Below, piece by piece: positions 21,582-45,497 of a stretch of 64,000 bases of DNA. Below the pieces are notes generated by a model. That model had not been told where the DNA came from. It saw only the letters and a list, made by a program, of their open reading frames with translations, and did no database searches. Made by a program: the position numbers and the translations under genes. The DNA is from Mycobacteriales bacterium (GTDB lineage Bacteria > Actinomycetota > Actinomycetes > Mycobacteriales > SCTD01), in the NCBI GenBank assembly GCA_038256525.1, contig JBBSKF010000003.1, positions 2,516 to 66,515 on the forward strand. Direction: 5' to 3'. Positions within the stretch are counted from its first letter, which is position 1. Each line of letters opens with the position of its first letter.

Positions 21582-22673
21582 TTACCTGTGCGTGACCCTT
21601 TCGTTGCCACGTGTTGCCACGATGTTTCGGTAGACCGCGAGGTGCGCCACGGCAGCCCGCTCCCACGTGAGGGAGCGAGCCAACACCCGCCCCGGCTCGG
21701 GGTTGAGCGGCGGCGCGGACAGTGCAGCGGCGAGCGACGGCGGGTCCACCCCGTAGCGGACGGTGTCGCCGAAGACCTCACGGAACACCGGCAGGTCCCG
21801 CAGCACGACGGGAACGCCGGCCGCCAGCGCCTCCAGCGCCGCGAGGCCGAAGCCCTCCTTCACACTCGGCAGGGCGAAGACGTCGGCGCAGGCCACCAGC
21901 GGCGGCACCTCGTCCTGGCCCAGTGGCCCGAGGATCCGCACGTCGACCCCCAGCTCGGCCACGCGGGCGTCTACCTCGGCGCGGTAGGTGCGGTGGTCGA
22001 ACAACGACTCGCCGCCGCCGACAGCCAGCCGGGCGCCGGGCCTGAGCAGCGCGAGCGCCTCGATCAGGTCGCGGCTGCCCTTGCGCGGCTCGATCCCCCC
22101 GACGGTCACGACGAGCGGGTCGCCGCCCAACCGCTCCCGCCAGCGCCGTCTCAGCTGGGGGTCGACCGTGGCGAAGCGTTCGGCGTCTACGCCGTTGGCG
22201 ACCACCGTCGCGGTGCGCCCCCGGGTGGTGCGCACCTCCTCGGCCACCTGCCTCGAGACGCAGATGAGCACCGGTGGTTCGAGCACGGCCCGCTCGTGGC
22301 AACGCACGAGCGCCGGGGTCGTGAAGCTGTCGAGATGATGCACGGTGCGCAGACAACGCGCCTCGACAGCATTGGCCGCGATGCAGTCCTGGGCATGCAC
22401 GATGTCGTACGCGCGAATGTCGACAGCCGCACCCAGCACGGAGATGGAGCGCCGCACCTTGGCGTCGAGCGACTCCTGCGCCCGGTCCGGCAGTGGGGTG
22501 ACAACAGCGCTCACCCGGGGGTCGAGCGGCCGGAAGAAGGTGCTGTCGCCTGAACGGCCGAGGGCGTGCACGGTGACGTGCTGCCCCAGGTCCGCGAGGG
22601 CCTCGGCCAGTGAGAGCGTGTGCACGACGCTGCCCCGGGGCCGGGTGGAGTAGGTGAGCAGGGCGATGCGCAC
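21582..22673 (-). CDS. GT4-family glycosyltransferase (MSMEG_0565-type)
   Basis: VRIALLTYSTRPRGSVVHTLSLAEAL..PSVKEGFGLAALEALAAG (E-x7-E region). It is the first gene of the minus-strand operon. An alternative GTG start is at 22688. Confidence 0.8.
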   Translation of the reverse strand: MRIALLTYSTRPRGSVVHTLSLAEALADLGQHVTVHALGRSGDSTFFRPLDPRVSAVVTPLPDRAQESLDAKVRRSISVLGAAVDIRAYDIVHAQDCIAANAVEARCLRTVHHLDSFTTPALVRCHERAVLEPPVLICVSRQVAEEVRTTRGRTATVVANGVDAERFATVDPQLRRRWRERLGGDPLVVTVGGIEPRKGSRDLIEALALLRPGARLAVGGGESLFDHRTYRAEVDARVAELGVDVRILGPLGQDEVPPLVACADVFALPSVKEGFGLAALEALAAGVPVVLRDLPVFREVFGDTVRYGVDPPSLAAALSAPPLNPEPGRVLARSLTWERAAVAHLAVYRNIVATRGNERVTHR

Positions 22674-22723
22674 CCCGCACCGTTGCACCGCGATGTTTCG
22701 CCGCGGTAACTAGCCTGCATGGC

Positions 22724-22993
22724 GTGACCACCCCCGAGAGCCGGGCCGCCACCGCTGCGGCGATCGGGGCGTTGACCGACTTCCTGACCGAGACCGAGGC
22801 CGGCTCGCCGCGACCGGTGGGCGCCTACCTGCAGCAGCTGGTCGACGAGGACGGGGTCGGTGCGCTGGCGCAGGGCTACTACGGGCTGCTCAACCTGTCC
22901 GCACTGCTGCTGCCCATGGCGGCGGAGCAGGAGGAGCTCGCGCCTCGCGAGCTGCTGCGGCAGATCGCGCTGATCGTCGCTCGCGACTCCTGA
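22724..22993 (+). CDS. hypothetical protein (89 aa)
   Basis: High GC3 codon usage and no recognisable motif. It is divergent from the Nit1C-like operon. Confidence 0.4.
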   Translation: MTTPESRAATAAAIGALTDFLTETEAGSPRPVGAYLQQLVDEDGVGALAQGYYGLLNLSALLLPMAAEQEELAPRELLRQIALIVARDS

Positions 22994-23003
22994 GCGGGCT
23001 CGG

Positions 23004-24491
23004 TCAGCCCAGGATCGTCTCGGCAGAGGCGCTCGTGACGACGGCTCCGTCGGCCTGAACCCGCACGACCGACTGGGCCTTCGTCACGCCGGTCAGGGCA
23101 AATCGCGACGACACGCTCATGGTGGGGGTGACCGCCGCCGGCAACAGCCCGCCCGACCAGGTGCAGCGGGCCTGGGTGTCCAGGACACAGGTCCACGCGC
23201 TCGACTCCGGCGTGCTGACCGAGACGACGGTCTGTGCCGGACCACCGTCGAAGGCGATGGCCAACGGACGACGCTCGGCCGTCGCGGATCGGTTCGTGAC
23301 CGAGACGGTGTGCTTGCCCGTGGCGCCGAGGGCCGCGCGCGAGGGGCTCAGCAGGGTCACCGCAAGTGGTGGCAGGGCGGTCGGGCTGGGGCTGGGGCTG
23401 GGGCTGGGGCTGGAGGTTGTGCGGCGGAAGCGGTCGCGCAGGGCGGCGCCCATCACGGTGGGCGTGCCCGCGTAGTCGGTGATCATGGCGACCTGGCCTT
23501 GCGCGCAGTCGAAGACTGTCCAGGTCCAGCCGATCACCGACACCCCACGGGTGTCGGCCCAGTCGAGGTAGCCGTTGACGAAGCCGGCTCCGCAGCCGAC
23601 CTCCCCGACCTCACCGGTCACCACCGGCACCTGCGCGGCGACCGGGGCGATCTCCCGCTCCCAGCAGGCCGCCGTGGCGCACTGGCTGTGGTTGTAGACA
23701 TGCACCCCGGCGACCAGCTGACCGGCTGGGTCGACCGGCCGGTAGGCCAGCCACTGGGACAGGTCGTTACCCCAGCCCAGACCGTTGAGGATGATCGGTT
23801 GGCGGGCGCCGGTGCCGCGCACCGCATCGACCAGGCTCTGCATCCCTGCGGCACGCCAGCCCTGCGAGGTCGTGCAGCCATCACGCCAGCACGCCCAGCT
23901 GATGTCATGCGGCTCGTTGTAGACGTCGAACATCACCGCGGGGTCGTCACGGAACGTACTCGCCACTGAGGACCAGAACGCCGGGGAACGCTCCGCGTCC
24001 GCCATCAACGCCTGATCAGTGGCCCGGGCTGCGCCCGCCGCGTTCCAGTGCAGGTCGAGCACCGCGAGCAAGCCCGCGGCATGCAACCGCTGCACATAGC
24101 CCACGATCGCCGAGCGGTACGCCGCCCCGCCGTAGGTCGTCGACACGCCGTTCACACCCAGCCAGCAGTCCTGGTTGAGCGGGACCCGCACCGCGGTGAT
24201 CCCCCAACCGGTCATCACCGCGATCGCCGCGTCATCCACCGGCCCCGAGAAGATCCCCCACCCCTGCACACAGGCATATTCAGTCCCCGAACGGTTCGCC
24301 CCCTGCAACCGCACCGGGCTGCCCGCAGCATCCACCAGCCGGTTGCCCGACACCGTCACCGACAACGGGGCACCAGCCGCACCCGCAACCGACGGCGTCA
24401 CCCCCGCCAGCAACCCAGCCAGCACCGCGACCAGCACACCCACCAGCACGCCACGACGAGACACACCGACCCATCGACCGGCAGCCCACAC
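23004..24491 (-). CDS. secreted GH5 endoglucanase (cellulase family) with Pro/Ser linker and C-terminal beta-domain
   Basis: Signal peptide, then MFDVYNEPH (acid/base Glu) and VVTGEVGE (nucleophile), then the linker SSPSPSPSPSPT. Confidence 0.8.
   Translation of the reverse strand: MWAAGRWVGVSRRGVLVGVLVAVLAGLLAGVTPSVAGAAGAPLSVTVSGNRLVDAAGSPVRLQGANRSGTEYACVQGWGIFSGPVDDAAIAVMTGWGITAVRVPLNQDCWLGVNGVSTTYGGAAYRSAIVGYVQRLHAAGLLAVLDLHWNAAGAARATDQALMADAERSPAFWSSVASTFRDDPAVMFDVYNEPHDISWACWRDGCTTSQGWRAAGMQSLVDAVRGTGARQPIILNGLGWGNDLSQWLAYRPVDPAGQLVAGVHVYNHSQCATAACWEREIAPVAAQVPVVTGEVGEVGCGAGFVNGYLDWADTRGVSVIGWTWTVFDCAQGQVAMITDYAGTPTVMGAALRDRFRRTTSSPSPSPSPSPTALPPLAVTLLSPSRAALGATGKHTVSVTNRSATAERRPLAIAFDGGPAQTVVSVSTPESSAWTCVLDTQARCTWSGGLLPAAVTPTMSVSSRFALTGVTKAQSVVRVQADGAVVTSASAETILG
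23383..23412. repeat. 5 x GGGCTG hexanucleotide tandem repeat (encodes the (SP)n linker of the GH5 protein)
   Basis: Read directly from the sequence. Confidence 0.9.
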
Positions 24492-24608
24492 CCCTTGAGG
24501 AGCACAGCGACCGAAAGGAAACCGGACACCGGGGCACAGACGTCCGCCTGTCCTAAAGAATCATGAGAACACTGGTGCAAACCGGATTACGTAGGGTAAC
24601 CAGCCGCT

Positions 24609-25949
24609 ATGCACACGAGGGGGGACATCTCCACGCCGTCAGGCGCACCGGACGGGGCTGCCGCCGTGCCCGGAGAGCAGCAGCGGCGCCGGGGCACCGG
24701 GCCCTGGCTGCTGGTTCAGGACGTCCAGAGGGCAAAGCACCGCGACCACCTGGCGCCCGGGTGGCTGCTGGTCGCGCTGCTCTCGGTGATCGGTCTGTCG
24801 GCGCTGCTCCACCACCGACGCAGTCGCGTCCCGGCGCTCGAGGTGCCGAGGCAGCGCACCCCGGACCTTCCGCAGACCGGGCTACCGGCGGGTCCCGTCC
24901 GCCGCGAGGTGGCGGTGCTCATCGCCACCCGCAACGGAGCCGACACCCTCGCCTCGACCATCGCCTCGGCCGCCGGGCAGGCAGACGTCTATGTCGTCTC
25001 CGACGGCTCCACCGACGACACCGCGCGCATCGCCGAGCAGAGCGGCGCCAAGGTTCTCGCGCTGTCGGTGAACATCGGCAAGCCGGCCGCGCTCTACCGC
25101 GCCAACCGGCACTTCGGGCTCACCACCGACTACCGCGCGGTCGCCGTGCTCGACGACGACACCGTCATCGGGCCGGAGTTCATCAAGCACTGCTTGGCCG
25201 GGCTGACCGACCGAGTCGCCATCGTGGTCGGCCGGACGATCACGAACTGGACGCGCGAGCACCGTTGGAACCCCTGGCTGGCCGTGCGCGCCTACTCCTA
25301 CTGGAAGTACCAGCTGCTCGTCCGCCGCGGTCAGAGCGCCTTGAACGTCATGAACTGCGTGTCGGGTAGCAACTCGCTCTACCGCTCCTCGGTGCTCGAG
25401 CAGGTGCTGGTCGAGGACACGCCGTACATCGTCGACGACACCTACTGGACGCTCGAGACCCACCGTCGCGGTCTCGGCCGCATCGTCTACGCGCCGAAGG
25501 CCACGGCGCTCATCTGCGACCCGCTGAACGGCCGCGACTGGTACAAGCAGAACCTGCGCTGGCTGTGGGGGACGATGCAGGGGATCCGCGGCCACCGCAT
25601 CGGCACCAAGCGGACGATGTTCGACTTCATGTACATCCTCATGATGCTGGACTGGTTCCTGTACGTCGTGGTCTGGCCGTTCTGGATCGCCGCCGTCTTC
25701 TGGGTCGGCCGGGACCACTGGCCTGTGCTGCTGGCCGTCTACCTGACCGGCTACCTCGTCTGGACCTCGATCGCGGCGATTGCGCTGCGCCGCTGGCGCC
25801 TGGTCCTGCTCACCCCGTTCGTCCTCGTCTTCGACTGGCTCTACCGCGTGAACTTCGCGCACGCGCTGGTCAAAGCCCTCCGGCAGCCGAGGGTCACCTC
25901 ATGCCGGTGGGAGTCCCCTTCCCGCTATGCACAAGGAGCAGCAGCATGA
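24609..25949 (+). CDS. membrane-bound processive GT2 glycosyltransferase (synthase-like)
   Basis: VAVLIATRNGADTL..VVSDGSTDDT, VLDDD (DxD), QNLRWLWG (QxxRW), and N- and C-terminal TM helices. Confidence 0.8.
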   Translation: MHTRGDISTPSGAPDGAAAVPGEQQRRRGTGPWLLVQDVQRAKHRDHLAPGWLLVALLSVIGLSALLHHRRSRVPALEVPRQRTPDLPQTGLPAGPVRREVAVLIATRNGADTLASTIASAAGQADVYVVSDGSTDDTARIAEQSGAKVLALSVNIGKPAALYRANRHFGLTTDYRAVAVLDDDTVIGPEFIKHCLAGLTDRVAIVVGRTITNWTREHRWNPWLAVRAYSYWKYQLLVRRGQSALNVMNCVSGSNSLYRSSVLEQVLVEDTPYIVDDTYWTLETHRRGLGRIVYAPKATALICDPLNGRDWYKQNLRWLWGTMQGIRGHRIGTKRTMFDFMYILMMLDWFLYVVVWPFWIAAVFWVGRDHWPVLLAVYLTGYLVWTSIAAIALRRWRLVLLTPFVLVFDWLYRVNFAHALVKALRQPRVTSCRWESPSRYAQGAAA

Positions 25950-26173
25950 CCGGTCCCACGAACTCAGCCAACGAAGTTGCCGCTCTCGGTACCTCCTTCG
26001 ACATGGGCGGCGGCATGGGAGGCGGTGAGTCGATGGGCTTCGGCGGCGCCGACGTCCTGCCCTTCACCGGTATCAGCACCGTCCCACTGGCCCTCGCCGG
26101 CCTGGTGGCTGCTGTCGTCGGCTCGGTGATGACCCGCCTCGGCCGGGACAAGACGCCGGTCGCCATCGACTGA
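25946..26173 (+). CDS. 75-aa Gly/Met-rich mini-protein ending in LPFTG + TM helix + basic tail
   Basis: MTGPTNSANEVAALGTSFDMGGGMGGGESMGFGGADVLPFTGISTVPLALAGLVAAVVGSVMTRLGRDKTPVAID. AAGGAG lies 7 nt upstream. ATGA overlap with the GT2 stop. It is a paralogue of 42197-42418. Confidence 0.6.
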   Translation: MTGPTNSANEVAALGTSFDMGGGMGGGESMGFGGADVLPFTGISTVPLALAGLVAAVVGSVMTRLGRDKTPVAID

Positions 26174-26198
26174 CCAGTCGACGCGTCCGCCGCCTTGC

Positions 26199-26894
26199 TC
26201 ACGCTCCCGGCGCGCGCAGCTCGTTCACGAGGTCCAGCAGATCGAAGATGATTCCCCGGAGCAGCCGGTAGCGCGCCAGCCCCACAAGCTTCACCACCAA
26301 CGGCACGGTCCGGTCGACCAGCGCGTAGGTCCTTGCCGATTCCGGGGACGCGTCGTGCACCCAATAGAGCACGATTCCCATCTGATAGAGCCACAGCAGC
26401 TCGGGCAGGCTTGCCCGGAGCTCCGGCGGCATCTTCACGCTCGTGGCGCCGTGGACGGCCTCTGCATAGAGCGCGATCGCCAGCGCGCGTGCGGGGGCAG
26501 ACTCGGCGCTGAAGGGGCTCAGTGGACTCTGCGGATCCGCGGCGAAGCGGAAGAACCCGACCGCGAAGTGCTTGTCGGCCTGAATGGTGTCGAGCCGTGC
26601 GCGCAGCACCCCGTGCAGCCGGGCCTCGAGGTCTGTCTCACGGTCGAGGACCGGGCGGGCGGCGGCGACGTGCAGCTCCTGTGACTGGTCGTAGTACTCC
26701 TGCACCAGGTGCTGCTTGCTGGGGTAGTAGTAGTAGGCGTTGCCGACCGACAGGCCGGCCTCCCCGGCGATGATCCGCATCGTGGTGGCTTCGTAGCCGC
26801 GCTCGCGAAACAGCCGCAACGCCGTGTCGACGATGCGCTGACGGGTCTGCTCGCCCTTGGCGGAGGACGCCGGTTCACGCCGGGGTGCAGTCAC
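26199..26894 (-). CDS. TetR-family transcriptional regulator
   Basis: TRQRIVDTALRLFRERGYEATTMRIIAGEAGLSVGNAYYYYPSKQHLV (TetR HTH). Confidence 0.9.
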   Translation of the reverse strand: MTAPRREPASSAKGEQTRQRIVDTALRLFRERGYEATTMRIIAGEAGLSVGNAYYYYPSKQHLVQEYYDQSQELHVAAARPVLDRETDLEARLHGVLRARLDTIQADKHFAVGFFRFAADPQSPLSPFSAESAPARALAIALYAEAVHGATSVKMPPELRASLPELLWLYQMGIVLYWVHDASPESARTYALVDRTVPLVVKLVGLARYRLLRGIIFDLLDLVNELRAPGA

Positions 26895-26934
26895 AGGACT
26901 TCCTTCGGTTGTCGGCTGCCGAGCCGAGAGGTGC

Positions 26935-27351
26935 TCAGCCGGGCATGGCGGGTGCGGACCAGACCGACTCAGGCGGCAGCGGCGGACGTACGGGAGTCAT
27001 GCGGCTCTGCTGGGCACGTCGTCGCAGCGTGTTGAGCACGAACAGGTTAGCCAGGTGCAGGACGCCCAGCACGAGCACGACGGTGCCCACCTTGACCGAC
27101 AGCGCCTCGAGCGCTGACTGGCTGTCGATGACCCGCTCCTCGGTCTTGAGGGCGATCGACACGAAGCCCAGGTTGACGAGGTAGAAGCCGACCACCAGCA
27201 GGTGGTTGACCGCCTGCGCGAGCTCCTCGTCGCCGTCGAAGACATCCAACAGGAACACGCGGCCGTTGCGACGCAGCGTGCTGCCGACCCACAGCGTGAT
27301 GGGGACCGCCAGAGCCAGATAGGCGATGTAGGTGAAGACGATGGGGTTCAT
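26935..27351 (-). CDS. small integral membrane protein (hypothetical)
   Basis: MNPIVFTYIAYLALAVPITLWVG.. with 4 predicted TM segments. GAGGAG RBS is present. It lies upstream of and is co-oriented with the TetR gene. Confidence 0.6.
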   Translation of the reverse strand: MNPIVFTYIAYLALAVPITLWVGSTLRRNGRVFLLDVFDGDEELAQAVNHLLVVGFYLVNLGFVSIALKTEERVIDSQSALEALSVKVGTVVLVLGVLHLANLFVLNTLRRRAQQSRMTPVRPPLPPESVWSAPAMPG

Positions 27352-42196: not shown

Positions 42197-42418
42197 GTGT
42201 ACCGTGGTGTTCTCGGTGGTGGCGGTACGGCCGTGCTGGGCGTCGGTTTCACCGCCGACAGGCTGCCTCTCACCGGTGTGCCGCTGCTTCTGCTGCTGCT
42301 CATCGCGCTGACGATGATCGTGGTCGGCGTCGTGATGACCCGGGTGGCCTTCGGATCCGCACCCGCCGGTGGCCCGACGCCTGCGTCCCGGACGGGACGC
42401 GGCACCAAGGGGTCATGA
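42197..42418 (+). CDS. 73-aa Gly-rich mini-protein ending in LPLTG + TM helix + basic residues (candidate sorting substrate)
   Basis: MYRGVLGGGGTAVLGVGFTADRLPLTGVPLLLLLLIALTMIVVGVVMTRVAFGS.. GGAGG lies 5 nt upstream of GTG 42197. ATGA overlap with the next gene. The upstream part of the track ORF has low GC3. Confidence 0.6.
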   Translation: MYRGVLGGGGTAVLGVGFTADRLPLTGVPLLLLLLIALTMIVVGVVMTRVAFGSAPAGGPTPASRTGRGTKGS

Positions 42419-43002
42419 CCGTCGCGGAGCCGATCGCCGCTGCGGAGCCGGCGGGGCGCCCGTCGCGCACCACTTTCGTGCAAGCGACGTCGGCCCTGCT
42501 GGTCGTCAGCGCCCTGCTGCTGGTCACCTTCGTTCACTACGGCCAGGTGCTCGAGGCGAGTATCAGTGCGGGATTGATCAACGCTCTGCAGATCTCGACG
42601 GCCTACGTCGTCGACACGTCGGTGATCTTCCTGCCCGGTCAGCGCTATGCCGGCTTCACGGTCAGTGCCGGATGCACAGCGACGCTTCTGGTGGTGCCGT
42701 TCTTCTTGATCACCGCCGGCCTGCTGTCGTTCAGCCGTTTCTCGCTCCGGCGGAGCCTGACTGCGCTGGGCGTGGTCACCCTGCTGATCTACGTGGCCAA
42801 TCAGGCCCGGCTGCTGCTCATCGCCGGTGTCATGCGGCTGTTCGGAGGTGAGCGCGGCTACGAGCTCAGCCACGTCTTCCTGGGCACCATCGTGAGCACC
42901 CTCGGCGTGCTGTTCGCGATCGTCGCGTTCGTGGCCATCCTCGTGGGCTGGCGGCCGGCCCGCGCAGGTCGCCGCGAGACCGAACTGAGCCCCGTTGGCT
43001 GA
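42415..43002 (+). CDS. exosortase/archaeosortase-family-like polytopic membrane protein
   Basis: Ordered motifs FTVSAGCTATLL (Cys), YVANQARLLLIAG (NxxR, 42 aa after the Cys) and ELSHVFLGT (His, 21 aa after the Arg), all within TM segments. Confidence 0.6.
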   Translation: MTVAEPIAAAEPAGRPSRTTFVQATSALLVVSALLLVTFVHYGQVLEASISAGLINALQISTAYVVDTSVIFLPGQRYAGFTVSAGCTATLLVVPFFLITAGLLSFSRFSLRRSLTALGVVTLLIYVANQARLLLIAGVMRLFGGERGYELSHVFLGTIVSTLGVLFAIVAFVAILVGWRPARAGRRETELSPVG

Positions 43003-44707
43003 CCTCGGCTTCGCCGCGGCGAACGGCCTGGCCTTCCTGCTGTGCGTTCTGTTCCTCGGCTACGTCTCGCTCATCTTCGTGCCCTACTTCCGGCACCGGC
43101 CGACCGCGGCCGGGAACCAGCACCTGTTCCAGTGGCACTTCCTCGTGCCGTGCATGGACGAGCAGGCGGTGGTCGAGAAGACCGTGCGCGGCTTGCTCGC
43201 GTCGTTCCCGGCAGCACACGTCTGGGCGGTGGACGACGCCTCCGAGGACACCACCCTCGCCATCCTGCGCCGGCTCGAGCGACAGGACTCCCGCGTGCAC
43301 ATCGTCGCGCGGACCGCACCCGAGGCCAGGCAGGGAAAGGGCGCCGCGCTCAATGCCGGCTGGCGCGCCATTGACGAGGCACTGCCCGCCGGTCAGCCAC
43401 GCGAGCGAGTCTTGATCAGTGTCGTCGATGCCGACGCAGTGCTCGACACCGATGCCCTGGCCATGGTCGCCGGTCCGACGTTCTTCGGCGACCACGAGGT
43501 CGGCGCGGTCCAGATCCAGGTCCGGGTCCGACCTGATCCCTTCCGCCCGATGAACGACCAGCCGTCGATCCCCCGGCGGCAACGGCTGCTGATCGCGCTG
43601 CAGGACCTCGAGTTCACCGGCCCGATCGCCGCCATGCAGATGCTCCGGAGCAAGACCGGCAGCGTGGCGATGGGTGGCAACGGCCAGTTCACCCGGCTGT
43701 CGGTGCTCAACGACGTCGCCGACCGGCACGGCACGCCCTGGCACGGCGCCCTGCTCGAGGACTTCGAGCTCGGCCTGCACGTCCTGCTGGCCGGTTCGCG
43801 TACGGCGTACTGCCACGACACCTCGGTGATCCAGGAAGGCGTTCCCCGCGTCGTGCCGCTGGTGCGCCAGCGCAGCCGATGGGCACAGGGCAGCATGCAG
43901 TGCCTCAGCTACCTGCGCGAGATCCTGCGCACGCGCCACCTGACCGCGGGTGGGACGCTCGAGATCGCCTACTTCCTGTTCTCGCCGTGGGTCCAGCTCG
44001 TCGGCGGTGTCGTCTACGCCACGCTCTTCTCCTCGGCCGCCTACTACGCCTTCACCGACCCCCTCGGGGTCGGGCACTGGTGGGGGGGTGGCGCCTGGGG
44101 CCTGGTGCCGCTGTTCCTGCTGTTCGGGGTCTCGCCCTTCCTCATCTGGGCCTTCATGTACCGCTCCCGGGTCCGTCCGGAGCTCAGCCTCTGGCGCGCG
44201 CTCGGGCTGGGGCTGGTCAACGCGCTCTACGTCTACTTCCACCAGGCGGCCACCTGGTGGGCGTTCTACCGCGTGATGACGGCACGCACCGACTGGAAGA
44301 AGACCGTCCGCTACTCCCAGCACGCCGTCGACGCCGCGCTCGACCTGCTGTTCCGGCCGCCCGCCCGCCCGCCCGGCGAGGCCCTGGCCCGCCTGCGCGG
44401 GAGTCGGGGCCCGGCGCCGTCTCGACCGCGCTCGGCGACGAGCGCCGCCGTCGCCTCTCAGTCCTCGCTCGCCCGGCTGCGCCGGGCGACCGTCACGCCA
44501 CTGCAATCACCTGTTACACAGCGTGACGAAAAGGCTCTTCGAGGTCTGCGCGGAGCGTCCCCTTCGCCCATGTCTGTCGTATTTGCGGGGGTTCACAAAC
44601 CCCAGGTGGATGCGCTACGGTACGACCCACTTTCGCCCCCCGCTCCACCCGTCCCATGGGTCCCGGACGCCGTCCGCGGTTCCGAACCTGTCACTGCGAG
44701 TCACTGA
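42995..44707 (+). CDS. membrane-bound processive GT2 glycosyltransferase (synthase-like)
   Basis: AVDDASEDTT, VVDADAVLD (DxD), QRSRWAQG (QxxRW), multiple C-terminal TM helices and a long Pro/Arg-rich tail. TTG start overlaps the previous gene by 8 nt. Confidence 0.8.
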   Translation: MADLGFAAANGLAFLLCVLFLGYVSLIFVPYFRHRPTAAGNQHLFQWHFLVPCMDEQAVVEKTVRGLLASFPAAHVWAVDDASEDTTLAILRRLERQDSRVHIVARTAPEARQGKGAALNAGWRAIDEALPAGQPRERVLISVVDADAVLDTDALAMVAGPTFFGDHEVGAVQIQVRVRPDPFRPMNDQPSIPRRQRLLIALQDLEFTGPIAAMQMLRSKTGSVAMGGNGQFTRLSVLNDVADRHGTPWHGALLEDFELGLHVLLAGSRTAYCHDTSVIQEGVPRVVPLVRQRSRWAQGSMQCLSYLREILRTRHLTAGGTLEIAYFLFSPWVQLVGGVVYATLFSSAAYYAFTDPLGVGHWWGGGAWGLVPLFLLFGVSPFLIWAFMYRSRVRPELSLWRALGLGLVNALYVYFHQAATWWAFYRVMTARTDWKKTVRYSQHAVDAALDLLFRPPARPPGEALARLRGSRGPAPSRPRSATSAAVASQSSLARLRRATVTPLQSPVTQRDEKALRGLRGASPSPMSVVFAGVHKPQVDALRYDPLSPPAPPVPWVPDAVRGSEPVTASH

Positions 44708-44717
44708 GGGAGCCTTC

Positions 44718-45497
44718 ATGGCCACGACCCGGAGCGCGCGAGTCCTCGCCGCCGGCTTCACTGCAAGTCTCATCCTGGTCTCCGCCTCGCCTGCCGCGGC
44801 ACAGGAGACCGGCACCGTCAACGGCAGTGCGTTCGGTGCCTCGATCAAGCTGGGCGGCGAGAACCTCCTGACGCCGACGCCACTCGTGAACCTGCCAGAG
44901 GACGGCACGTTCACAGAGGACGACACCGCCAACGTCGCCCTGCCTGGACTGCTCGACGCCCGCGTCCTTCGCGCCGAGACCGAAGGCGACCCGGAGACCG
45001 GAACGTCGACGGCGACTGGGGAGGTTGCCGACGTCGAGGTGCTGCCTGGACCGCTCGGAGCGACGCCGAGCTTGCTCAGCGCCGATGCCATCAGCGCCAC
45101 CTGCACGGTCGGACCCGATGGCGACGACTTTGTTGGCTCGGCGACCTTGGCCAACGTCGTGCTCAGCAACGGCACCGTGCTCGACGTCAGTCCTGGTGCA
45201 AATACTGACGCGGACCTTCTGGTGGCCGAGATCTTCCTGAACGAGCAGACGGACAACGGTGACGGCAGCTTCACCGTCAACGCCATTCGCATCGTCCTGC
45301 TCCCAGGCCTCGTGCCCAGCGATCGAGACGGCCTGGAGATCATCCTCGGCTCGGCGACCTGCGGCCCGAACAGCGCCGCGCCGCCGATCAACGCCATCCC
45401 GACCGCCGGTCTGCCGATCGCGGCCGGGATCGTCGCCGCCTTCGTTCTCGGCGTCGTCGTGATGCGCCGCCGCGAGATGGGTCCGTTCGCCGCCTGA
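44718..45497 (+). CDS. secreted protein (signal peptide, beta-rich 'LNEQ' domain) with C-terminal IPTAG + TM + RRR anchor signal
   Basis: MATTRSARVLAAGFTASLILVSASPAAAQE.. ..AEIFLNEQTDNG.. ..INAIPTAGLPIAAGIVAAFVLGVVVMRRREMGPFAA. Confidence 0.7.
   Translation: MATTRSARVLAAGFTASLILVSASPAAAQETGTVNGSAFGASIKLGGENLLTPTPLVNLPEDGTFTEDDTANVALPGLLDARVLRAETEGDPETGTSTATGEVADVEVLPGPLGATPSLLSADAISATCTVGPDGDDFVGSATLANVVLSNGTVLDVSPGANTDADLLVAEIFLNEQTDNGDGSFTVNAIRIVLLPGLVPSDRDGLEIILGSATCGPNSAAPPINAIPTAGLPIAAGIVAAFVLGVVVMRRREMGPFAA

Follow-up and report, generated by a model that had tools for sequence, protein, structure and literature searches.

A glycosyltransferase gene coupled to a mini-protein gene

The DNA analysed here is a stretch of 64,000 nucleotides (nt) from a Mycobacteriales bacterium, called the window throughout. 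At 24609-26173 it carries two genes, encoding a family-2 glycosyltransferase (GT2-A) and a small protein of 75 amino acids (aa), mini-protein A. The small open reading frame (ORF) and its relatives elsewhere are called mini-ORFs. Judged from the sequence comparisons described below, this pair is a copy of a two-gene cassette that is conserved and moves horizontally. Each component is of a known kind; it is the pairing that appears undescribed, and no description of it was found in the searchable literature. The coordinates of the features are collected in Table 1. The exact products of mini-protein A and of a second such gene in the window, encoding mini-protein B (73 aa), are already annotated as genes in a public NCBI record.

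Table 1. Positions of the genes and sequence features discussed. Positions are those of the window unless a locus handle (L) precedes them; TM, transmembrane.
Feature	Position	Strand	Description
Secreted GH5 glycoside hydrolase	23004-24491	-	PF00150, 94 bits; signal-peptide-like N-terminus; divergent from GT2-A across 117 bp
GT2-A, 446 aa	24609-25949	+	Pfam PF13641, PF00535, PF13632; membrane-integrated family-2 glycosyltransferase, processive synthase class
Translational coupling signals	25933-25949	+	AAGGAG 25933-25938; ATGA stop/start overlap 25946-25949
Mini-protein A, 75 aa, MTGPTNSANEVAALGTSFDMGGGMGGGESMGFGGADVLPFTGISTVPLALAGLVAAVVGSVMTRLGRDKTPVAID	25946-26173	+	Acidic Gly/Met-rich head, then sorting-signal-like tail
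LPFTG motif of mini-protein A, residues 38-42	26057-26071	+	Read from the sequence
TM helix of mini-protein A, ISTVPLALAGLVAAVVGSVM	26072-26131	+	20-residue hydrophobic span
Basic tail of mini-protein A, TRLGRDKTPVAID	26132-26170	+	TRLGRDK after the hydrophobic span
TetR-family regulator	26199-26894	-	PF00440 and PF17931; convergent with the mini-ORF, 25-nt gap
Mini-protein B, 73 aa	42197-42418	+	GTG start, GGAGG 6 nt upstream; Gly-rich head, LPLTGVP, TM helix, MTR
Xrt-like exosortase/archaeosortase-family protein	42415-43002	+	TIGR04178, 32.1 bits (cutoff 23)
GT2-B, XrtP-associated-type glycosyltransferase	42995-44707	+	NF053846, 513.9 bits (cutoff 520)
Cassettes on phage-like contigs	L086:6001-7205; L087:6001-7184; L088:5112-6295		
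Divergent Saccharibacteria mini-ORFs	L019:~3253; L058:~2932; L024:5569-5688; L032:5658-5831; L042:5533-5712 (all on the - strand)		

The TGA stop codon of GT2-A (25947-25949) overlaps the ATG start of mini-protein A (25946-25948), and the sequence AAGGAG lies 7 nt upstream. Mini-protein A begins with a head of 37 residues that contains no Lys or Arg and has no hydrophobic signal-peptide core. The remainder has the parts of a sorting signal, with an LPXTG-type pentapeptide near the C-terminus followed by a hydrophobic span and a positive tail. An earlier note on this DNA, made from the sequence alone, had described the GT2 with its DGSTDD, DDD and QNLRW motifs, the ATGA overlap and AAGGAG ribosome-binding site, the layout of the 75-aa ORF (no signal peptide, a Gly/Met-rich head, LPFTG, a TM helix and a basic tail) and the divergently adjoining secreted GH5. 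All of this stands, on direct reading of the sequence, the Pfam domains of both enzymes, and the signal-peptide-like start and 117-bp spacing of the GH5. That the mini-ORF is a genuine conserved gene coupled to the GT2 is borne out by the homologs, pattern matches and Shine-Dalgarno sites given below.

GT2-A has the D, DxD, (T)ED-like and QxxRW motifs of processive synthases, with DGSTDD at residues 132-137, DDD at 182-184 and QNLRW at 314-318. In an alignment of 16 family sequences (A2) the residues D132, S134, D136, D182-D184, D276-D277, Q314, N315, R317 and W318 are invariant. The AlphaFold2 model (pLDDT 77.8, pTM 0.74) predicts an N-terminal TM helix (51-71), a catalytic domain (~99-330) and three C-terminal TM helices (337-425). 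A Foldseek search of the PDB with this model gave the Chlorella virus hyaluronan synthase (HAS; TM-scores 0.60-0.63) as the top match (7sp8, E = 3e-15, TM-score 0.60), followed by Xenopus HAS1, chitin synthases and BcsA. The Chlorella virus enzyme also ranks first when PDB sequences are searched with a family profile (E = 3.6e-9), and a phmmer search of the same sequences with GT2-A gave no match. On its motifs and modelled fold, GT2-A is a membrane-integrated synthase of the processive HAS/chitin synthase/BcsA class. It may make and translocate a polymer, and a NodC-like oligosaccharide product is also possible. Its nearest relatives in sequence and fold use UDP-GlcNAc.

The likeness to class I HAS (Chlorella virus; 7sp7, 7sp8 and 7sp9) and to chitin synthases thus comprises the best fold and PDB profile matches and the D, DxD and QxxRW motifs. 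The best fold match is itself virus-encoded, as some copies of the cassette appear to be. GT2-A differs from HAS in its low identity (15-17%) and fewer TM helices, and HAS needs no small partner. The best NCBIfam match of GT2-A is PgaC_IcaA (TIGR03937) at 56.2 bits, against an equivalog cutoff of 422.3, and the 'PgaC' labels on members of the family are unjustified. There is no match at E <= 0.01 to NF053846 (XrtP-associated glycosyltransferase) or, unlike GT2-B, to TIGR03030 (CelA); Pfam finds GT2 domains only, and no PilZ. NCBIfam has no model for the GT2-A family or the mini-protein family as such.

Many homologs of ~345 aa lack the N-terminal helix, leaving the three C-terminal TM helices, and this would leave room for the helix of the mini-protein in a membrane assembly. 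About one-fifth of the listed homologs (612-658 aa; for example P0056, P0036 and P0051) have an N-terminal extension of ~270 aa that is conserved among its bearers in alignment A2 and has no Pfam domain.

GT2-A homologs form at least 490 protein clusters, typically 55-64% identical over a core of ~340 aa, and the homologs of mini-protein A form 11 clusters at 57-97% identity; the longest contig of one of the latter (P0131) also carries a GT2 homolog. Scanning the GT2-A family alignment over one genome per species gave 80 loci (L001-L080). The carriers include Micromonosporaceae (Micromonospora, Verrucosispora, Pilimelia, Longispora, Polymorphospora and Solwaraspora), Agrococcus, Nocardioidaceae, Acidimicrobiia, Thermoleophilia/Gaiellales, Nitriliruptoraceae and Candidatus Saccharibacteria.

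The earlier note had suggested a search for homologous pairs in other genomes. These loci were scanned, frame by frame, for a strict pattern comprising L/I/V/M-[PA]-x-[TS]-G, a 17-residue uncharged hydrophobic segment and a K or R before the stop codon. The pattern occurs beside the GT2 in 71 of the 80 loci, with 73 matches, 65 of them immediately downstream on the strand of the GT2. Background matches number 10 in 658 kb of the same loci (0.015 per kb), from which ~2 would be expected in the ~150 kb of flanks, and the motif is thus enriched ~30-fold beside the GT2. Among the loci without a match, L009, L012 and L077 are truncated at contig ends, and L039 and L052 have the GT2 at the start of the contig with the upstream side missing. 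The tail that follows LAFTG in L008 is long, the variants LPNTS and LPSTS lie divergently upstream in L019 and L058, and L050 has a frameshift. The -3 (ATGA-type) overlap is found also in L015, L031, L038, L047, L048, L076, L079, L086, L089 and L090. All-versus-all clustering of the ORFs over the 80 loci gave no conserved partner besides the mini-ORF. Other apparent neighbour clusters were rejected as Micromonosporaceae synteny or low-complexity artefacts.

A short frame in GC-rich DNA could arise by chance, and the 7.5 kb for which ORFs were listed is overlapped by 62 that are 40 aa or longer. For the 75-aa ORF this explanation is refuted, and can in practice be set aside, by protein-level conservation that reaches from close relatives into other phyla, the Shine-Dalgarno site, the start-stop coupling and the ~30-fold enrichment.

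The closest relatives of GT2-A outside the lineage of the window (P0004, 74% identity; P0005, 69%) are on metagenome contigs of 38-104 kb. Phage-like contigs hold the same cassette, for example with mini-protein MSASMENAGGLPFTGFSTIPLAIAGLVAVAFGAISQWLGKSAKH and P0131. The three examined (L086-L088) have many small co-directional genes, and their PHROG matches include a terminase large subunit, an Lsr2-like protein, a Cas4-like exonuclease and a MazG-like pyrophosphatase. The presence of the cassette on such contigs suggests that it is carried by apparent actinophages. GenBank phages gave only matches of <30% identity, and IMG/VR gave none, so that the phage context is drawn from the metagenome contigs L086-L088.

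Among named taxa in the 80 loci only Actinomycetota and Candidatus Saccharibacteria carry the cassette. Those Saccharibacteria that are in culture live as epibionts on Actinomycetota. This pattern fits either exchange between host and epibiont or a need for a monoderm envelope bearing sortase.

A sorting-type signal and its association with sortase genes

Mini-ORFs were scored in the 71 loci, and all have a Shine-Dalgarno match. They have a median length of 46 aa, and the head that precedes the motif has a median of only 6 residues, as in MSANQDLPLTG, MSESLPVTG and MYGGELPFTG. In an alignment of 37 members (A3) no column is invariant except those of the initiator Met and of the motif's L and T; the G of the motif and one Gly in the middle of the helix are each at least 90% conserved. 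The commonest motifs are LPVTG (28), LPLTG (12), LAFTG (9) and LPFTG (7), and LPATG, LAMTG, LPNTG, LAATG and others also occur. Position x is thus free (V, L, F, A, M, N, S, H or D) and P interchanges with A. This is the degeneracy of the LPXTG/LAXTG motifs of sortases, and class E sortases of Actinobacteria prefer LAXTG.

The charges are distributed asymmetrically. The heads contain 3 K/R and 84 D/E in 991 residues, and over the first 15 residues of the tails the median K/R count is 4. This asymmetry indicates an N-out/C-in topology as the predicted arrangement, which would place the motif at the outer face of the membrane. Export of mini-protein A would then occur by signal-independent insertion of the N-terminal tail. 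Ser or Thr is present in 74 of 77 heads, and an acidic residue immediately precedes the motif in 34 of the 77. There are also lineage-specific conserved motifs in the helix, such as TLPLxxxGL. Mini-protein A scores 37.7 bits on the hidden Markov model (HMM) of the family and its shuffled versions score at most 5.9; it is a long-headed variant of the family.

Models of known cell-wall anchors recognise part of the family. TIGR01167 (LPXTG anchor; cutoff 15.9) matches 18 of the 37 mini-proteins at E <= 1, at least five of these lying above the cutoff at 16.2-24.3 bits, and PF00746 (cutoff 20) matches 13 of the 37.

Sortase genes lie beside the cassette in 11 of the 80 loci (L019, L024, L032, L038, L039, L042, L052, L055, L058, L059 and L080), which belong to two phyla. 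All pass PF04203, and most are within ~250 nt of the GT2 or mini-ORF. The order of the genes varies and is operon-like. It is mini-GT2-sortase in L059 and L080, GT2-mini-sortase in L038, and GT2-sortase with the mini-ORF divergent upstream in L019, L058 and L032, where the gap between GT2 and sortase is 8 nt in the first two. In L042 the mini-ORF and sortase are together divergent from the GT2. A second sortase is found in L058 and L032, next to its own xAPxG-type surface proteins, and the sortase that adjoins the GT2 therefore appears to be dedicated to the cassette. On this genomic association and the anatomy of the motif, we conclude that the signal of the family is a sortase-type signal.

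Some variants were noted. In Saccharibacteria the mini-ORF is often divergent and upstream of the GT2; its product starts MYG... and has a longer head, with LP[NSD]T[GS] followed by (S/G)NKL. Changes of G to S in the motif (LPNTS, LPSTS) are found where the sortase directly follows the GT2. The neighbours of the second sortases in Saccharibacteria end in xAPxG(A/G)V.AG.GG, a TM helix and R/K (L058:382-2624 and 975-1967; L032:3176-4985; L039:2164-2958), which suggests a separate pair of sortase and substrate whose motif is not of the LPXTG type. Two mini-protein clusters (P0129 and P0130, 58 aa) lack LPFTG and the beginning of the helix owing to an internal deletion (...GGGEV--LELAGVVAAVVG...). 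In Micromonospora sp. KC723 (L050:7047-7325) the frameshift lies immediately past ...SSQELPL. These may be decaying copies or errors of assembly.

Neighbouring genes and a second locus with an exosortase-family gene

The earlier note had likened GT2-A and the divergent GH5 to BcsA/BcsZ or the Streptomyces CslA/CslZ, in which case the hydrolase would trim a beta-glucan. The two systems share with the window the adjacency of a GT2 and a secreted glycoside hydrolase, here one with a cellulase-family domain and a signal-peptide-like start. The layout is kept in locus L089, which repeats the whole order GH5 <- -> GT2-mini <- TetR. With a GT2 that is 89% identical and a GH5 that is 94% identical, L089 is too close for its synteny to weigh much. 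A tblastn search found no GH5 homolog within 6 kb in any of the 80 loci, nor on the three phage contigs, so the synthase-hydrolase reading rests on synteny at the level of the genus. The window also differs from those systems in that the hydrolase is a GH5, GT2-A lacks PilZ and the flanking genes are GH5 and TetR. Moreover, the nearest relatives of GT2-A are synthases that use GlcNAc, not cellulose synthase, and TIGR03030 is unmatched. We therefore regard a functional pairing with the GH5 as improbable.

In L090 (GT2 72% identical) the mini-ORF (MTGVINGGGFGG...MLPFTGFSTIPLALAGL...) is present and is followed by YceI; upstream, the sequence is cut short by the end of the contig. The TetR gene is present in L089, and L060 has a homolog of 59% identity ~2 kb upstream of the GT2; it is absent from the other loci. 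The GH5 gives weak matches to solved cellulases (best E 7e-10). Its C-terminal ~135-138 aa (23004-23420, - strand), past a PSPSPSPSP linker, have no Pfam domain and may be an unrecognised binding module. Two genes upstream of the GH5 there is an MSMEG_0565-family GT4 glycosyltransferase (TIGR04047, 387 bits; 21582-22688, - strand), with a small ORF (22724-22993) intervening. This GT4 belongs to a different conserved actinobacterial cluster that is unrelated to the cassette. The GC content near the cassette shows a dip (0.66-0.69, compared with 0.70-0.75) that is too mild for calling an island. A scan of 22600-27200 for promoters and terminators was uninformative.

The window contains a second locus of related appearance (locus B). 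Mini-protein B (...DRLPLTGVPLLLLLLIALTMIVVGVVMTRVAFG... / ...LPLTGVPLLLLLLIALTMIVVGVVMTRV...) has an ATGA overlap with the gene of an Xrt-like exosortase-family protein, which is followed by GT2-B. The Xrt-like protein falls below the cutoffs of the named subfamilies (XrtP, 67.3 bits against 200; XrtS, 58.2 against 145; XrtR, 43.9 against 150) and is likely to be an unmodelled exosortase subfamily. Four independent contigs have a mini-ORF (...GGGASLPTTGVPIMLLLL..., ...GGGVLAATGFPVIGF..., ...LGVGLARTGFPALGL... and ...GAGSLPRTGVPLLLL...), then Xrt, then a GT2 of ~510-565 aa, with a protein of ~250-275 aa following where the contig continues. A mini-ORF lies upstream of every Xrt-like homolog examined, with the motifs LPTTGVP, LAATGFP, LARTGFP and LPRTGVP.

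An HMM of the type-A family was built from 74 GT2-linked mini-proteins. The five Xrt-linked mini-proteins score 16-23 bits on it, and among 200 shuffles of each the top score is at most 8.9 bits. Two classical LPXTG signals, labelled SpA and M6, score 9-10 bits. BLASTP of mini-proteins A and B aligned only the stretch VVGxVMTR, and the family HMM was needed to reveal the relationship. Both kinds often start MY(G). The architecture common to them may possibly reflect common descent. The earlier note had proposed that mini-protein A mirrors the 42197-42418 product, and had held that a similarity no better than that of shuffled sequences would speak against it; since the Xrt-linked mini-proteins beat their shuffles, this is not what was found. 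The likeness of the two loci is real, and points to a parallel system.

The synthases do not share this likeness. GT2-A and GT2-B give a BLASTP E value of 0.62 and are related only at the level of the superfamily, and only GT2-B matches the model of XrtP-associated glycosyltransferases; paralogy of the two was rejected.

The same note had inferred that the pair may depend in trans on the protein at 42415-43002, which would then process mini-protein A. This has in its favour the Gly-rich head, LPxTG, TM helix and VMTR that both mini-proteins of the window share, their HMM similarity and MY(G) starts, and the lack of a sortase gene in the window. The genomic evidence points elsewhere. In a tblastn search an Xrt homolog was found within 6 kb of GT2-A in none of the 80 loci, the only Xrt-like gene of the window being 16 kb away, and no Xrt was found in the 12-13 kb inspected around the cassette on the phage contigs. 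The Xrt-like family comprises 11 protein clusters, compared with at least 490 for GT2-A, and most carriers of the cassette cannot rely on it. Finally, all five Xrt-linked mini-proteins have G[VF]P, with a Pro two residues past the Gly, and mini-protein A has LPFTGIS. Taken together, the missing Pro, the rarity of the family and its absence from the cassette loci argue against processing in trans, which we consider very doubtful.

Compared with the XrtP-type system (NF012139, NF053846), to which locus B corresponds, the cassette is alike in having a mini-protein, a protein of a sorting-enzyme family and a GT2, and the mini-proteins are detectably similar. Locus B differs in having a polytopic exosortase-family enzyme, another GT2 family, TG[VF]P motifs, the order mini-Xrt-GT2 and a rare occurrence. 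Neither the GH5 nor the exosortase-like locus is part of the cassette. What stands of the interpretation in the earlier note is therefore the coupled mini-ORF and the mirrored architecture; the paralogy, the action of Xrt in trans and the pairing with the GH5 do not.

Downstream of GT2-B there is a choice-of-anchor P protein that ends in IPTAGLP, a TM helix and RRRE, which may be the same signal as in the Xrt-linked mini-proteins. As called (44523-45497) its ORF shares 185 nt with the end of GT2-B. The true start is likely to be the ATG at 44718 (MATTRSARVLAAGF..., signal-peptide-like), 11 nt past the GT2-B stop.

A proposed role for the mini-protein, and its significance

The reading that we favour, to which we would give an even chance, is that the cassette is a mobile synthase with a sortase-substrate adaptor, in which a sortase cuts the mini-protein and so couples the product of the synthase to the envelope. 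On the cytoplasmic side of the membrane the GT2 would use a UDP-sugar to build a beta-linked glycan, probably passing it outward. The mini-protein would insert with its N-terminus outward, held by its TM helix and basic tail, probably beside the synthase, so that L[PA]xTG lies at the outer face of the membrane. A sortase would then cut LPFTG after the Thr. It could be a housekeeping enzyme encoded outside the window or, where the cassette has one, a dedicated enzyme; GADVLPFTGIST and MSANQDLPLTGAS would be candidate target peptides for a class E sortase or for one of the L059 or L038 type. The short head peptide would be transferred to the cell wall, and the synthase product would thereby be coupled to the wall through this peptide, which would serve as its primer, handle or tether. 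The presence of Ser or Thr in nearly all heads and the frequent acidic residue before the motif make a role as primer or handle attractive. Topology, cleavage, the acceptor of the peptide and the identity of the glycan are all inferred from sequence. The coupling is the weakest step, and a head this short could not form a functional domain.

An alternative last step is that the TM remnant reports the activity of the sortase back to the synthase. In Streptococcus gordonii the sortase 'C-peptide', the TM remnant left after LPXTG of large adhesins, acts in the membrane on a histidine kinase (PMC11502775). By analogy the helix of the mini-protein might play a like role beside the GT2; the S. gordonii remnant differs in being derived from large adhesins.

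The mini-proteins resemble the substrates of sortases in their tripartite L[PA]xTG, hydrophobic span and K/R tail with the same degeneracy, in the matches of about half of the family to anchor models, and in the sortases beside the cassette. They differ in having no signal peptide or passenger domain and often only 4-6 residues before the motif, and in always being paired with a GT2.

Several observations weigh against the adaptor reading. Mini-protein A itself is missed by the anchor models, with no match to PF00746 or TIGR01167 at E <= 1. It has no signal peptide and essentially no passenger domain, and the gain from anchoring an octapeptide is doubtful. There is no sortase gene within the 64-kb window, so that the enzyme for mini-protein A would need to be encoded elsewhere in the genome, and 69 of the 80 loci have no adjoining sortase. 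The active site of the synthase is cytoplasmic and the head extracellular, and the tether step therefore needs an extra assumption. Many GT2s of the family have few TM helices (three C-terminal ones, or four including the N-terminal one as in GT2-A), and a mini-protein helix with a conserved Gly could be a structural subunit.

This last point leads to a rival in which the mini-protein is a single-pass accessory subunit like PgaD or IcaD, completing or stabilising the channel, with the motif a contact or gating element that is never cut. The cassette does resemble PgaC-PgaD and IcaA-IcaD in that a processive GT2 precedes a small membrane protein co-translated with it, and some sources label its members 'PgaC'. 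The coupling is tight, and co-occurrence with the GT2 is near-universal regardless of a nearby sortase. The synthase is short of TM helices (1 + 3 here, 3 in the ~345-aa forms), the mid-helix Gly is at least 90% conserved alongside lineage-specific motifs such as TLPLxxxGL, and PgaC_IcaA is the top NCBIfam match, though far under its cutoff (56 bits against 422). Set against this, the invariant residues are those of the sortase motif, with free x and alternating P/A, and not positions of helix packing, and sortase genes lie in or beside the operon in 11 loci of two phyla. The partner has one TM helix and LPxTG, and PgaD and IcaD have two helices and no such motif; no deacetylase of the PgaB/IcaB type is consistently adjacent to the cassette. 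There are no fusions of GT2 and mini-protein among 10 longer homologs, their added length being N-terminal. A plain subunit is the main rival explanation, and one that we think unlikely.

In monoderm bacteria wall polysaccharides are attached by LCP enzymes, and sortases are regarded as anchors of proteins. A GT2 paired with a protein that is essentially a sortase signal, sometimes together with its own sortase, points to an undescribed link between polysaccharide and sortase. A bolder generalisation, which we offer tentatively and think rather unlikely, is that sorting transpeptidases here handle polysaccharide in place of protein. A mini-protein consisting of a sorting signal alone would serve as primer or handle by which a sortase (or, in locus B, an exosortase-like enzyme) tethers the nascent glycan to the wall, or the enzyme would gate the synthase. 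Such a design would either have evolved or been exchanged in combination with two GT2 families and two families of sorting enzyme, unrelated in each case, and would move among Actinomycetota, Saccharibacteria epibionts and actinophages as a surface-remodelling cassette.

For annotation, the finding means that such tiny ORFs are real genes. The parallel exosortase locus in the same genome provides a natural comparison, and could help to explain why exosortases often adjoin glycosyltransferases. The cassette is small, with two genes and a peptide of 40-75 aa, and it occurs in culturable Micromonospora and Agrococcus, so that the idea lends itself to direct testing. The copies on phage-like contigs and in Saccharibacteria suggest a function in remodelling the cell surface, for example in blocking adsorption or in attachment.

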